Part shown: in pieces, positions 34,417-38,458 of the stretch
Layout of the letters: each line of letters opens with the position of its first letter
Numbering within the stretch: position 1 is the stretch's first letter
Translations under genes and position numbers: made by a program
Notes under the pieces: generated by a model
Told to the model about the DNA's origin: nothing
Databases searched by the model: none
The model's input: only the letters and a program-made list of their open reading frames with translations
Source: Armatimonadia bacterium
Lineage (GTDB): Bacteria; Armatimonadota; Zipacnadia; UBA1398
Reading direction: 5' to 3'
DNA: 40,566 nucleotides
NCBI GenBank assembly: GCA_014730065.1
Contig: WJIW01000117.1
Coordinates: forward strand, 1-40,566

Positions 34417-34569
34417 CATCGAGTGCAGGGGCCTTTGGCCCTCGGAAGACGGTGCAATTCCGTCGCTGCCCCGCAACTGTGACCGGGGACGAAAGCCGCA
34501 GCAGCCACGAGCATTGGCTTGGAAGGCGCGGCGAGTAGGTCGATCCGGAAGCCAGGAGACGGCTCGATG
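34417..34569 (+). ncRNA. Cobalamin (AdoCbl) riboswitch
   Basis: GGAAgacGGTGcAATtCCGtc (34444-), CTGCCCCGCAACTGTGA (34466-82), GCCAC...GGAAGGC (34504-27), B12 box AAGCCAGGAGAC (34549-60). P1 is CATCGAG (34417-23) / CTCGATG (34563-69). It lies upstream of a btuFDC-like operon. Confidence 0.93.
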
Positions 34570-34725
34570 AACCTGGGATCGCGCTCCTCGAGGGTGGGAG
34601 AACGCGGACATGCCATCGACCCCTGACGCCGGAGGCTCCTCCGGCAGCCGCTTCGCCGGATCAGGCCGAGAGCCATCGCCCGCACCGTCCCGTGGGATCG
34701 CGACCCCGCAAGGGGCCCTACGCCC

Positions 34726-34935
34726 ATGTACAGTGTGAAGCTCGACAGTGCGCTCTTCGCACCACCGAGAAGTCGGCTCGACTCGCCCGACCTCGCCTAC
34801 GCCGCCAAGCTGGCCGAGGTGCTGGACCACGAGGAATGCCGCCGTGACCCTGAGCTGAGGAAGTGGGCCGCCGCCTGCGTGCTCGCAGCCGCGCCCTTCC
34901 CGACTTGCCTGACCATCGGAGGCGATGCGCAGTGA
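34726..34935 (+). CDS. Small hypothetical protein (69 aa) in the cobalamin-riboswitch leader
   Basis: AAGGGG upstream, strongly GC3-biased codons, and a stop that overlaps the next start (GTGA at 34932-35). Confidence 0.5.
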
Positions 34936-35657
34936 GCCGCATCCGCCGAAGCCCGCGGGGCTTCACCCTCATCGAGCTGCTGGTGGTCATCGCCATCATC
35001 GCCATCCTGGCGGCCATCCTGTTCCCCGTCTTCGCCAAGGCGCGGGAGAAGGCCCGCCAGACGAGCTGCCTCTCGAACCTGCGGCAGCTCGGAACGGCGT
35101 GGAGCATGTACGCTCAAGACTACGACGAGATGGCGTGCATCTCGTACTACTTCACGCCCGACTTCAGCATGGAGTACGCCTGGGACTACACCATCGACTG
35201 GAATGCGGGGATCACAGATCTGGGCCTCCTGGGTCCATACACCAAGAACTCCCAGATCAACCAGTGCCCGAGCTTCCAGGCCGAGACCTGGGGCCGGCCC
35301 CACACGGGCTACGCCTATAACATGCGCATCGGCGGCGATGTCTTCGCATGGCCCCCCACCAACCCCGTGTCCATCGGGGCGATCCAGAAGCCCACGGAGA
35401 CGGCTCTGCTGGCCGACAGCGCATACTGGAGCACATGGCCCTCTCCGGGCCTGTCGGGGAACAACTACCTCCGCAGCCCGAGCGACCCGTCGTACGCCTT
35501 CGTGGGGCCCAACGTACACTTCCGCCACAACCAGGCGGCCAACGTGACCTGGGCCGACGGCCACGCCAAGGCCGCTACCCAGGCCTTCAACATCAGCGCC
35601 GAGGACGACAGCCTGGGCGACCTGTCGCCCGATGATGAGCTTTACGACCTGAACTAG
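34932..35657 (+). CDS. Prepilin-type N-terminal cleavage/methylation protein with DUF1559-like region and H-X9-DG motif
   Basis: GTG 34932 with [51 protein letters not shown]-terminal [16 protein letters not shown]. 241 aa. Confidence 0.9.
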
Positions 35658-35662
35658 AGGAG

Positions 35663-35693
35663 CTGGGGGAGCGTCCGCGCGGCGCTCCCCCAG
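35663..35693 (+). repeat. 11-bp perfect inverted repeat (stem-loop without U tract) between the prepilin-like gene and the btuF-like gene
   Basis: CTGGGGGAGCG (35663-73) / CGCTCCCCCAG (35683-93). Confidence 0.6.
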
Positions 35694-35707
35694 AACCGGA
35701 GGCAGAG

Positions 35708-36658
35708 ATGCAGAAGAGCCAACTCTTGATCGTGTTAGTCGTGGGGTTGATCCTAGGGGCGGGCACCTTCGTGCTCATCGGCGGCAACCCCGACGCGCCG
35801 CCCCCCGAGCAATCCGGCGATCCCGCCCCCCCGCCGGAACCGACCGAGGAAGGGGGGCCCCAGCGAGTCATCGTCCTCTCTCCCGCCCTGGCCGAGATGG
35901 TCTACGCCATGGGCGAAGGCGACCGGGTGGTGGGGGTCAGCGACTTCTGCGAGTATCCGCCCGAGATCAAGAGCGTAACCACCTGCGGCGGCTTGATCAC
36001 GCCGAGTTACGAGGTGATGGAGTCACTGGACCCCGACCTGGTCATCGTGCAGGGGCTGGCGGATTCCATCGTGGAGTACTGTGACTCCGCCGGCATCCCG
36101 GTTTTGGATGTGCCCCTTGATTCCCTGGACGACATATACGCAGCCATCGAGATCCTGGGCGAGGAGCTGGGAGCGACGGAGTCGGCCGATGGTCTCATAG
36201 AGTCCATGCGCTCGGATATGGATGATGTCCGGGAGGCCGTTGCGGGTGAGGGCAGGCCGCCGGTGTTCCTGGCGACGGGCCGAAGCCCCGGCCGGCTGAA
36301 GGACATGATGACCGCGGGCGGCGGCAGCTTCCTGAGCGATCTGGTGGGCGTAGCGGGCGGGGAGAACGTGTTCGCGGACTCGGAGCAGCTCTGGCCCCAG
36401 CCCGCCGTGGAGGCCATCGTTGCCGCCGAGCCCGAGGTGATCATCGACATCCAGCCCAACCTGGATGTGGGCGAAGTGGAGCTGGACGCCGTTGCCGAGC
36501 AGTGGAGCGAGCTGAGGACGGTGCCCGCGGTGCGCGAGGGCCGAGTTCATGTGACCACCGAGGACGCGCTGCTGATACCGGGCCCACGCGTCACCGGTAC
36601 GGCGCGTGTGTTCGCCCGGCTGATCCACCCCGAGGTCTCCTTCGATGACTCCCCCTGA
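35708..36658 (+). CDS. btuF: Cobalamin ABC transporter substrate-binding protein (BtuF-like, helical backbone receptor), N-terminally anchored
   Basis: PQRVIVLSPALAEMVYAMG..DRVVGVSDFCEYP, PDLVI, GGENVFAD, VPAVREGRV, PGPRV. Under a B12 riboswitch. Confidence 0.8.
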   Translation: MQKSQLLIVLVVGLILGAGTFVLIGGNPDAPPPEQSGDPAPPPEPTEEGGPQRVIVLSPALAEMVYAMGEGDRVVGVSDFCEYPPEIKSVTTCGGLITPSYEVMESLDPDLVIVQGLADSIVEYCDSAGIPVLDVPLDSLDDIYAAIEILGEELGATESADGLIESMRSDMDDVREAVAGEGRPPVFLATGRSPGRLKDMMTAGGGSFLSDLVGVAGGENVFADSEQLWPQPAVEAIVAAEPEVIIDIQPNLDVGEVELDAVAEQWSELRTVPAVREGRVHVTTEDALLIPGPRVTGTARVFARLIHPEVSFDDSP

Positions 36659-37454
36659 GAGCGCGTATGATCTGCATGGCCTGAGCTTCCGGTACGACGA
36701 GGATCCGGTGCTGTCGGACCTGACGGGCTCCGCTCGCTCCGGCGAGTTTCTCGGGGTTCTCGGCCCCAACGGCGAGGGCAAGTCGACCCTCCTGAAGCTG
36801 CTCCTCGGCACCCTCCAGCCGGCGCAGGGGAGCATCAGCCTCTTCGACAAGCCCCTGCGCCAGATCCCCGCTCAGGAGCGGGCGAGGGCGGTGGGGTACC
36901 TCCCCCAGGAGGTCGGCGTCACGTACCCCTTCAGCAGCTTCGAGGTGGTCCTCATGGGACGCTACCCCCACCTGTCGACCTTCGCTCTGGAATCGGCACG
37001 CGACGAGGCCATCGCCGAGAGCTGCATGGAGCGCACCGGCACCCTCCATCTGGCTCGCCGGGCTTTCGCTACCTTGAGCGGGGGCGAGAAGCAGCGGGTG
37101 CTGATCGCATCGGTGCTGGCCCAGGAGCCACGGGTGCTGCTCCTCGACGAGCCCACCGCCTCCCTGGACATCAGCCACCAGTACAGCTTGATGGAGATGC
37201 TCCGCGGCCTGGCCCGAGAGGGCATCACCATCTTGATGGTCACCCACGACGTGACGCTGTCGGCGGGATACTGTGACCGCCTGTGGCTGCTCTCCGAGGG
37301 CCGGATCCTCGCCGAGGGGCCGCCCGAGTCGGTGGTGACCGAGGACAACCTGAAGCAGCTTTACGGCGCGGAGTTCCGCGTCACCACCGATCCCGGCACG
37401 GGGCTGCCCTTGATCCTCCCGCCCGCTCGCCGAGGGGCGTCCACATGCGCCTGA
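36645..37454 (+). CDS. btuD: Cobalamin/Fe-siderophore ABC transporter ATPase (BtuD-like)
   Basis: GPNGEGKST, YLPQE, GRYPH, LSGGEKQRV, LLLDEPTASLD, VTHD. Confidence 0.82.
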   Translation: MTPPESAYDLHGLSFRYDEDPVLSDLTGSARSGEFLGVLGPNGEGKSTLLKLLLGTLQPAQGSISLFDKPLRQIPAQERARAVGYLPQEVGVTYPFSSFEVVLMGRYPHLSTFALESARDEAIAESCMERTGTLHLARRAFATLSGGEKQRVLIASVLAQEPRVLLLDEPTASLDISHQYSLMEMLRGLAREGITILMVTHDVTLSAGYCDRLWLLSEGRILAEGPPESVVTEDNLKQLYGAEFRVTTDPGTGLPLILPPARRGASTCA

Positions 37455-38458
37455 CGCCCCTGCGATTGGCTACCGTTTTGATCGTATGCGTGGGCCTGGC
37501 CTTGGCTGCCCTCGCCGGGTCGCTCTTCGTCGGCGCCGTGGACATCGACCTGGCCGAGGGGTGGCGGGCCTTGTTCCATGCCGAGCTGCGCGAGGGCAAC
37601 GTGAGCTACCAGATCCTCATCGCCCAGCGGCTGCCCAGGGGCCTGCTCGGGTTCCTGGTAGGTCTGGGGCTCGGGGTGGCCGGCGCGGCTCTCCAGGCCA
37701 TTCTGCGCAACCCCCTGGCCGATCCCTATGTGCTGGGGATCTCCACGGGCAGCGCCCTGGGCGCCGTCCTGGCCATGACCTTGGGCCTGTCCTTCGGCCT
37801 GGGGCCCTTCCGCGCCGTGGAGATCTTCGCCCTCATCGGGGCGGGCCTGGTCATGCTGCTCCTCTACCGTCTGGCTCGGCGCCGGCGCGAGTTCTCCATG
37901 AACGCACTGCTGCTCTGCGGGGTGACCATCGCGCTGGTGGGCTCCTCGGGGATCCTGCTCATGCGCTACTTGGCCGAGCCCCAGCTTCTGGTGATCATGG
38001 ACCGGTGGATGATGGGCGGCTTGGCCATCGTGGGCTACGACGAGCTGGCCGGCCTCTTCCCCCTGCTGCTGCCCGGAGTGCTGCTGATTCTGTGGATGTC
38101 GGGCGCCCTCAACCAGCTCAGCGTGGGGGAGGAGCTGGCCATGGGCAGGGGCGTGGATGTGGAGAGCACCCAGCGATGGGTGTTCGCAGCCGCTTCCCTG
38201 GTGACCGCCGCTGTGGTGGCCATGGCGGGGCCCATTGGTTTCGTCGGGCTCATCGTGCCCCACGCGGTGCGCGGAGTGGTAGGCCCCGACCACCGGCTTC
38301 TGGTGCCGGCATCGGGGCTGGTGGCGGGGGCCTTCCTGGTGTTCTGCGACAGCTTGGCCCGCACCGTCCTGTCGCCCACGGAGCTGCCCGTCGGCGTGGT
38401 CACGTCGCTTCTGGGTGGGCCGGTGTTCGTCTACCTGCTGCTGCGCCGCTCGGGGTGA
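37445..38458 (+). CDS. btuC: FecCD-family ABC permease (BtuC-like)
   Basis: RLPRGLL, QAILRNPLADPYVLGIS, GPIGFVGLIVPH, ELPVGVVTSLLGGP. Start ATG 37445 overlaps the ATPase gene end. Confidence 0.82.
   Translation: MRLTPLRLATVLIVCVGLALAALAGSLFVGAVDIDLAEGWRALFHAELREGNVSYQILIAQRLPRGLLGFLVGLGLGVAGAALQAILRNPLADPYVLGISTGSALGAVLAMTLGLSFGLGPFRAVEIFALIGAGLVMLLLYRLARRRREFSMNALLLCGVTIALVGSSGILLMRYLAEPQLLVIMDRWMMGGLAIVGYDELAGLFPLLLPGVLLILWMSGALNQLSVGEELAMGRGVDVESTQRWVFAAASLVTAAVVAMAGPIGFVGLIVPHAVRGVVGPDHRLLVPASGLVAGAFLVFCDSLARTVLSPTELPVGVVTSLLGGPVFVYLLLRRSG

Follow-up and report, generated by a model that had tools for sequence, protein, structure and literature searches.

The window analysed here is a whole stretch of 40,566 nucleotides (nt) from Armatimonadia bacterium GCA_014730065.1 (contig WJIW01000117.1, positions 1-40,566, forward strand), whose genome assembly comprises 5.65 Mb in 669 contigs and is 90.17% complete. 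It carries a locus in which a cobalamin riboswitch is followed by a small open reading frame (ORF), a gene for a prepilin-type protein of the DUF1559/H-X9-DG family, and genes for a BtuFDC-like importer. The best explanation of this locus is a cobalamin-repressed corrinoid acquisition operon whose first large gene comes from a B12-specific clade of DUF1559/H-X9-DG proteins, and we put at roughly 0.6 the probability that the pilin-like protein serves ligand-specific acquisition at a step ahead of the inner-membrane importer. Riboswitch-controlled B12 uptake operons as such are textbook knowledge; in most of the Armatimonadota examined, however, a pilin-type protein stands in the place of the outer-membrane receptor.

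The riboswitch aptamer (RF00174; 34404-34581, + strand) reaches 90.9 bits (gathering score 31.5; E 2.1e-21), its alignment extending over the full length of its model (positions 1-189 of 189). RF00174 is the sole Rfam family found across the 40.6-kb window, and a genome-wide scan returned 34404-34581 as its only match, with a second, cut copy just 5' of the start of another contig (C532, discussed below). On the same strand follow a spacer, the small ORF, the pilin-like gene encoding 241 amino acids (aa) at 34932-35657 (within a listed ORF at 34863-35657), a hairpin, a BtuF-like substrate-binding gene (35708-36658; Pfam Peripla_BP_2, PF01497, 102.7 bits), a gene for a BtuD-like ATP-binding cassette (ABC) ATPase (36645-37454; ABC_tran, PF00005, 108.9 bits), and one for a BtuC-like FecCD permease (37445-38458, the start being taken as ATG 37445; PF01032, 288.1 bits). 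This is the order given in an earlier annotation made from the letters of the DNA alone (the sequence-only reading), except that the start it gave, 34417, falls inside the aptamer, and there is, as it also stated, no TonB-dependent receptor in the operon. The transporter genes overlap one another (btuF/btuD by 14 nt, btuD/btuC by 10 nt), and the permease and the ATPase, both with clear family matches, together make up a BtuCD-type importer. The BtuF-like protein reaches 95.3 bits with the NCBIfam BtuF model PRK03379, whose equivalog cut-off is 234, and we infer its corrinoid specificity from the riboswitch context only. Its N-terminus (35708-35880) consists of a hydrophobic helix and a Pro/Glu-rich linker and has no lipobox cysteine, and the protein would accordingly appear to be held at the inner membrane instead of diffusing through the periplasm; among NCBIfam models, it best matches that of an archaeal binding protein with a PGF-CTERM anchor. 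No pilus-assembly genes are present among the operon ORFs and their Pfam matches.

The pairing of riboswitch and pilin-like gene recurs throughout the phylum. RF00174 was surveyed in 151 Armatimonadota genomes, 147 of which had a match, and 150 riboswitch places including that of the window were taken, each with 5 kb downstream, and scored by tblastn with the window proteins at E <= 1e-4. As related genomes are not independent, counts are given and no statistical test. A pilin-like homolog is the first gene in 84 of the 150 places and lies further down on the same strand in another 7; btuF/D/C genes only were found in 14 and neither in 43, and 2 places were too short to judge. Counted by genome, the pilin gene comes first in 78 of the 113 genomes with an examined place, and these represent 28 of 39 family codes. 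The closest three relatives of the protein in reference genomes (56-60% identity, full length) have RF00174 directly upstream in every case, and none of 13 paralog loci of lower identity has a riboswitch. The arrangement, which the sequence-only reading had allowed might be unique to this genome, is phylum-wide in Armatimonadota and is also found in Planctomycetota- and Verrucomicrobiota-labelled genomes.

What lies beyond the pilin-like gene is more variable. Its description as occupying the "BtuB position of a btuFDC operon" is borne out in 31 of the 84 pilin-first places, where btuF, btuD or btuC is also found downstream on the same strand, and fails in the other 53, which have no btuF/D/C within 5 kb; many riboswitch-pilin loci are monocistronic (for example, L002). 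The distance from the 5' end of the riboswitch to the mature pilin N-terminus has a median of 361 nt. Clustering of the ORFs that lie downstream in the 83 pilin-first places with a mature protein showed the pilin gene to be followed by BtuF-like genes in 25 loci, BtuD in 13, CobT in 10, CobS in 9, BtuC in 8 and CobU in 7, all of them corrinoid transport or nucleotide-loop salvage genes, and by a second DUF1559 gene in 6 loci and signal-peptide proteins without a Pfam family in 17.

The riboswitch-linked proteins also form a single clade within a large family: the window's own genome alone has 36 matches to DUF1559 (PF07596). A first tree contained 82 riboswitch-linked proteins, 32 other paralogs from the same genome and 10 from other genomes, after removal of L149 (a masked stretch), L129 (a 540-aa ORF that is family-like at its N-terminus only) and, by motif and length filters, three of the 13 paralog loci. 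FastTree placed every riboswitch-linked row in one clade with support 98. A second tree omitted two long-branch rows and gained ten riboswitch-linked proteins of two further phyla; here, IQ-TREE placed all 92 riboswitch-linked rows on one side of a branch with a support of 98 in the Shimodaira-Hasegawa-like approximate likelihood ratio test (SH-aLRT), or 99 once proteins linked to the thiamine pyrophosphate (TPP) riboswitch had been included. Five rows inside the clade carry no riboswitch label: two copies from the window's genome (on contigs C532 and C241), L014, L064 and L075. The CTCCTCG.GGGTGGGAG string found after the window aptamer also opens contig C532, which has, besides the clade member, a homolog of the small ORF, so that C532:1-1200 (L327) is a second riboswitch locus, broken by the assembly; because it is cut just 3' of the aptamer, the count of one riboswitch for this genome is an undercount. 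No riboswitch was detected at E <= 0.1 before 23 other paralogs of the same genome (20 regions scanned).

The idea, advanced in the sequence-only reading, that the riboswitch labels the ligand of the protein behind it has gained an independent parallel in a TPP-riboswitch-linked clade found in thiamine salvage operons. An Rfam scan of 59 further paralog loci (L018-L076) detected a TPP riboswitch directly before the DUF1559 gene in three of them (L026, L032, and L045) and a weak cobalamin riboswitch before a fourth (L027). The TPP riboswitch (RF00059) is present in 104 of the 151 Armatimonadota genomes, and a prepilin/DUF1559-type gene lies 80-330 nt past it in 16 of the 30 best TPP places (L328-L357). 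In the window's own genome, the only TPP riboswitch match (C138:825-931 (-)) is directly ahead of a DUF1559 paralog (C138:472-931 (-) for riboswitch and gene as a whole). Twenty TPP-linked proteins fall into one group apart from the B12 clade, with weak support (SH-aLRT 69). In L032:82-3096 and L026:205-3187, the TPP riboswitch is followed by the pilin-like gene, thiamin pyrophosphokinase and an SSF symporter, and these two loci follow the logic of the window: a vitamin riboswitch, a clade-specific pilin-like gene, and an inner-membrane importer with salvage enzymes. The flavin mononucleotide (FMN) riboswitch (RF00050) was found in one of 101 genomes, in a locus with no pilin motif.

To place the pilin-like gene among the targets of cobalamin riboswitches, the TonB systems have to be considered. 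The window's own genome, in its 90.17% complete assembly, has no match to the TonB-receptor barrel (PF00593), Plug (PF07715) or TonB C-terminal (PF03544) domains, extending the absence of a receptor from the operon to the genome. Elsewhere in the phylum, Pfam analysis of 20 representative first genes from non-pilin-first loci recovered TonB receptors (Plug and beta-barrel domains), TonB, ExbB, NrdD, class I ribonucleotide reductase, CobT, CobD, proteins with dockerin and DUF5074/YncE-like domains, and a PEP-CTERM protein. These first genes show that the canonical cobalamin-riboswitch regulon is present in Armatimonadota. The dockerin and DUF5074/YncE-like genes are at L116:635-1924 and L201:3377-4687 (-), the latter in a locus where the pilin-like gene comes later, and the PEP-CTERM gene is at L253:3872-4852 (-).

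A TonB receptor lies downstream of a riboswitch in 26 places, distributed over 25 genomes. A riboswitch-receptor and a riboswitch-pilin place occur together in only four (G069, G084, G134, and G142), and 7 of the 113 examined genomes have neither. The two arrangements thus largely behave as alternatives, and their near-exclusivity suggests that the two riboswitch targets do the same job. When TonB-dependent receptors of any kind are considered (present in 89 of 151 genomes), the pilin arrangement is found in 37 of the 45 examined genomes without such a receptor and in 41 of the 68 with one. The comparison with btuB proposed earlier thus favours the sequence-only reading as regards riboswitch-controlled receptors, but the pilin arrangement extends to genomes with TonB receptors: since 41 of the 78 pilin-arrangement genomes possess some TonB-dependent receptor, the pilin route is not simply a substitute for absent ones.

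The features of a pilin are readily recognised in the protein itself. Its likely true start is GTG 34932, with GGAGG at 34918-34922, nine bases ahead, and read from this start the prepilin leader is complete, with a short basic leader, G-1, F+1 and E+5, followed by a hydrophobic helix. The protein matches Pfam N_methyl (PF07963; 38.8 bits, cut-off 21.2) and the NCBIfam prepilin domain (TIGR02532; 36.7 bits, cut-off 16.3). Its DUF1559 match (PF07596; 33.0 bits, cut-off 23.3) covers model positions 2-32 of 268 only, and its score with the H-X9-DG model (TIGR04294; 18.2 bits) is just below the cut-off of 19, although the motif H199-x9-D209-G210 is visible and is invariant or nearly so across 81 relatives. 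With the GspG equivalog model (TIGR01710), residues 9-63 alone align, for 38.8 bits against a cut-off of 88.85, and neither the Plug (PF07715) nor the barrel (PF00593) model matches. Conserved family-wide are C46, C112, Y60, D63, W84, Y103, H199, and D209-G210-H211; L50, G98, G126 (in a GYxYN motif), D162, and F197 (in HFRHN) set the clade apart from other paralogs.

An AlphaFold2 model based on an 81-row clade alignment (mean predicted local distance difference test score, pLDDT, 94.0; predicted template modelling score, pTM, 0.86) has a helix at residues 13-63 followed by a beta-rich head. In a VIA structural scan, the first 22 rows were all type IV pilins or pseudopilins, with modest Z values: PilA4 of Thermus thermophilus came first (6xxd_A; Z 6.3, root-mean-square deviation (rmsd) 3.1, 123 residues aligned) and ComP second (5hz7_A; Z 5.2, rmsd 3.9, 99 residues aligned), and EpsG (Z 4.8) and PulG (Z 3.7) were also matched. 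A Foldseek search of the PDB with the same model gave no match at E <= 0.001. The predicted structure fits the fold of a type IV pilin whose head is enlarged, a reading based on the VIA matches together with the leader. The Pfam identifier SBP_bac_10 had raised the idea of a periplasmic solute-binding fold, and no such chain occurred among the VIA rows, whose top 22 were pilins. A predicted complex of BtuF (residues 48-316) with the pilin head (residues 36-241), computed with both partners entered as alignments, had a median score of 0.21 against a mark of 0.32 and bears neither way on an interaction. In databases, the 120 best homologs are called "prepilin-type ... protein" or "DUF1559 domain-containing protein", apart from two that bear the name "DUF1559 family PulG-like putative transporter", which indicates that annotators had already guessed at a role in transport.

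Clade members are also found behind cobalamin riboswitches in two groups whose phylum assignments are database labels only, each represented by its 30 best riboswitch places. In the Planctomycetota-labelled group (G151), a clade member is directly downstream in 4 of the 30, in addition to G151's own locus, and a TonB receptor in 7; in the Verrucomicrobiota-labelled group (G152), the corresponding counts are 5 and 11, and three of the five pilin-linked riboswitch matches are below the gathering score, one of these three leading into pilin and btuF genes. In three riboswitch-linked homologs with Planctomycetota or Verrucomicrobia labels (L265, L318, and L323), L, N or K takes the place of G ahead of FTLIELL, so that processing by prepilin peptidase may differ there.

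Between aptamer and pilin-like gene lie a presumed expression platform and the small ORF. The spacer (34582-34725) contains two segments, 34582-34612 and 34692-34716, that are almost identical in a locus of the same genus (L223). At its 3' end, the aptamer has the 10-mer TGGGATCGCG (34574-34583), which recurs 119 nt downstream (34693-34702), where it adjoins a CCCC-GCAA-GGGG hairpin (34704-34715) within which a Shine-Dalgarno-like AAGGGG lies 10 nt before the ATG of the small ORF; repeat and hairpin are both identical in L223 and may be parts of the expression platform. The small ORF itself (34726-34935, + strand; 69 aa) has no Pfam or NCBIfam match. Its homolog in L223 shares 60% identity over 70 aa (E 2.9e-20), and the differences between the two, distributed 19/15/33 over the three codon positions, show a third-position excess that fits a coding sequence. 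Another homolog is present at the paralogous locus of the same genome (C532:143-352), and tblastn of the other riboswitch loci gave only a weak match in L217 besides these. Small ORF and pilin-like gene share bases in a GTGA, where the former stops (TGA) and the latter starts (GTG); L223 has kept this overlap, and we would guess that the two are translationally coupled. Beyond the pilin-like gene, the intercistronic hairpin (35663-35693, + strand) has a 13-bp stem and no T run, and its folding energy of -34.8 kcal/mol (z -4.45) was equalled by none of 200 shuffles.

How might a pilin-like protein contribute to corrinoid acquisition? In the scheme that we favour, scarcity of corrinoid would open the riboswitch and allow the pilin-like protein to be made, prepilin peptidase would cleave it after G10, and its enlarged head would bind corrinoid, acting ahead of the membrane-anchored BtuF and BtuCD. 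Most likely, a short retractile fibre or a pseudopilus would contain the protein, as a subunit or as the tip, and would work through a secretin, much as competence pili do for DNA; by this means the vitamin could be brought across the outer membrane, or concentrated in the periplasm, without TonB. We regard the passage of a fibre through a secretin as a tentative step, with the odds somewhat against it. The window's genome has six secretin matches, one prepilin peptidase (peptidase A24), an Omp85 protein, and 12 T2SSE ATPase matches, five of them full-length (frames of 528-727 aa) and seven partial (288-458 aa); the secretins, ATPases and peptidase show only that the machinery is available, and nothing more. 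The same genome has seven B12-binding-domain matches and CobS and no match to CbiC, which together indicate that it uses corrinoids and probably must import them.

Several observations weigh against this scheme. The head has no recognised corrinoid-binding motif, and the clade-specific residues point to no mechanism. Four clade members (the C241 copy, L014, L064, and L075) have no detectable riboswitch, four genomes combine both riboswitch arrangements, more than half of the pilin-arrangement genomes (41/78) also have some TonB-dependent receptor, and no transporter gene of the btuF/D/C type is within 5 kb in 53 of the 84 pilin-first places. As to the regulation, the fold of the spacer region (34560-34740) is no better than those of shuffled sequences (z 0.81), and a terminator and promoter scan of 34200-38700 gave nothing on the + strand. 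The survey, finally, covers the 150 places described, with 56 weaker RF00174 matches lying outside them, and the sampled genomes are all metagenome bins or representatives.

Some of these observations would be accommodated if the protein were instead a periplasmic corrinoid binder anchored in the inner membrane, its helix serving as the anchor without any fibre, that passes corrinoid to BtuF after entry through another outer-membrane channel. Such a binder draws on the same riboswitch, clade and operon evidence as our favoured scheme, and it would sit well with an operon lacking pilus-assembly genes and with a BtuF that is itself membrane-anchored, since both proteins could then act at the inner membrane. 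The TonB-dependent receptors present alongside the pilin gene in those 41 genomes, and the four genomes with both arrangements, likewise suggest that the pilin protein could be an accessory rather than a replacement. Against it stand the full prepilin-peptidase signature (G-1/F+1/E+5) and the complete pilin fold predicted here; the window's genome has neither a TonB-receptor or TonB match nor another named outer-membrane route, yet has those six secretin matches; and the near-exclusivity with riboswitch-controlled TonB receptors suggests the same job for both. On balance, we judge such an anchored binder, the chief rival of our scheme, to be unlikely.

That a riboswitch precedes the gene is evidence of regulation and not of binding, and one can also imagine a pilin or adhesin that binds no vitamin and is simply induced by starvation, for attachment to vitamin-producing neighbours or particles or to alter envelope permeability, the B12 and TPP clades then differing in their regulation only. 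The failure to find a binding motif in the head, the many monocistronic loci, and the 53 places without a nearby transporter gene are all compatible with this. The B12- and TPP-linked proteins are, however, separate conserved clades with clade-specific head residues, as would be expected of ligand specificity and is difficult to attribute to regulation on its own, and the gene recurs directly before the matching inner-membrane importer and salvage enzymes of each vitamin; because the two vitamin clades are distinct, we consider a non-binding pilin improbable. Least probable by far is an incidental association, in which the riboswitch controls the small ORF or btuFDC and the pilin-like gene is merely carried along, as one of a family with more than 30 copies in each genome. 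The family is certainly abundant (the 36 PF07596 matches noted above), and the small ORF does sit between riboswitch and pilin gene, but the counts already contradict such an explanation: the gene is first in 84 of 150 places, most of which, with the median spacing of 361 nt, leave no room for a small ORF; the linked copies form one clade, and 36 tested paralogs or paralog loci outside it have no riboswitch; and the small ORF is limited to a single genus. The interpretation that we prefer thus remains that of a ligand-specific component of acquisition, active ahead of the importer.

Comparison with characterised systems helps to define what is distinctive about the locus. Like BtuB, the pilin-like protein is encoded by the first large gene behind a cobalamin riboswitch, ahead of btuF/C/D-type genes, but it is a 241-aa protein with a predicted pilin fold and without Plug or beta-barrel. 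BtuG and BtuH of Bacteroidota are surface corrinoid-binding lipoproteins encoded in riboswitch-controlled btu loci, and they deliver corrinoid to BtuB. The pilin-like protein would resemble them as an extra corrinoid-capture protein of a riboswitch-controlled btu locus, whereas they are lipoproteins serving BtuB and it is of pilin type and usually found without BtuB. With GspG and PulG it shares the N-terminal cleavage/methylation motif and hydrophobic helix as well as the structural matches to EpsG and PulG; its head, however, exceeds theirs by about 100 residues and includes the H-X9-DG motif, and its gene lies outside any gsp operon. Neisseria ComP is the DNA-binding minor pilin of competence pili. 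Here the resemblance is in the pilin fold, in the secretins, pilus ATPases, and prepilin peptidase of the window's genome and, by analogy, in the proposed logic whereby a pilin would bind cargo that passes a secretin; the differences are the cargo, proposed to be a small vitamin instead of DNA, the riboswitch control, and the setting in a transporter/salvage operon. Among the DUF1559/H-X9-DG paralogs of Planctomycetota, Verrucomicrobiota, and Armatimonadota, finally, the protein passes the PF07596 cut-off and shares the motif and the family-wide residues, but its clade is a distinct one, which cobalamin-riboswitch linkage defines and in which positions 50, 98, 126, 162, and 197 have residues of their own. 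Within the parts of the literature accessible to a full-text search, nothing connected cobalamin or its riboswitch with proteins of the DUF1559, H-X9-DG, prepilin, pilin, or pseudopilin kinds, and the papers found on DUF1559/H-X9-DG assign no function to the family.

A number of further observations concern the surroundings of these loci. The Pfam-less signal-peptide genes that follow the B12-linked pilin often occur two to four in tandem (L112:1312-3848, L126:1404-3922, L185 with four in tandem, L205, L206, and others), and one subgroup of their products, of ~330 aa, has a PEP-CTERM-like VPEP...RRRG tail and propeller-like repeats. These proteins may be further corrinoid-capture proteins; a sequence search of the PDB with the PEP-CTERM secreted family A3 gave nothing below E 0.38. 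Cobalamin aptamers can be doubled: two on one strand precede a single pilin-like gene at L207/L220 (G067:C83:28755-29225; 2 of the 84 places), two lie close together before one such gene at L263/L265 (G151:C198:1-521), and at L272 (G204:C6:53665-55080) the pilin-like gene sits between two. Divergently upstream of two orthologous riboswitch-pilin loci are a URO-D family gene (L002:3512-4657 (-), 69.3 bits) and a CobU gene (L004:2013-2609 (-), 157.3 bits). Just upstream of the riboswitch in the window is a GFO/IDH/MocA-type oxidoreductase gene (33286-34359), and genes of this type are found near DUF1559 paralogs in 10 of 80 related loci (L020, L021, L024, L027, L033, L042, L061, L066, L072, and L076). 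The window also contains a second prepilin/DUF1559 gene (14178-14921 (-); N_methyl 34.8 and DUF1559 30.5 bits), which has no Rfam match ahead of it and falls outside the B12 clade.

The DUF1559/H-X9-DG proteins are among the largest uncharacterised paralog families of Armatimonadota, Planctomycetota, and Verrucomicrobiota, and two vitamin riboswitches pointing to two of their clades provide concrete candidate ligands, corrinoids and thiamine compounds. If binding and secretin-dependent uptake were true, diderm bacteria would possess a TonB-independent means of vitamin import, and vitamin auxotrophy and cross-feeding would have to be read differently from the genomes of these widespread environmental phyla. 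One may speculate further, at odds that we place below even, that the whole family is a repertoire of ligand-specific "fishing" pilins working through secretins and pilus ATPases for TonB-free nutrient import, in which case the riboswitches may label just two clades among the tens of paralogs per genome carried by Armatimonadota and the Planctomycetes-Verrucomicrobia-Chlamydiae (PVC) phyla. Such a repertoire would constitute a new class of outer-membrane small-molecule import.

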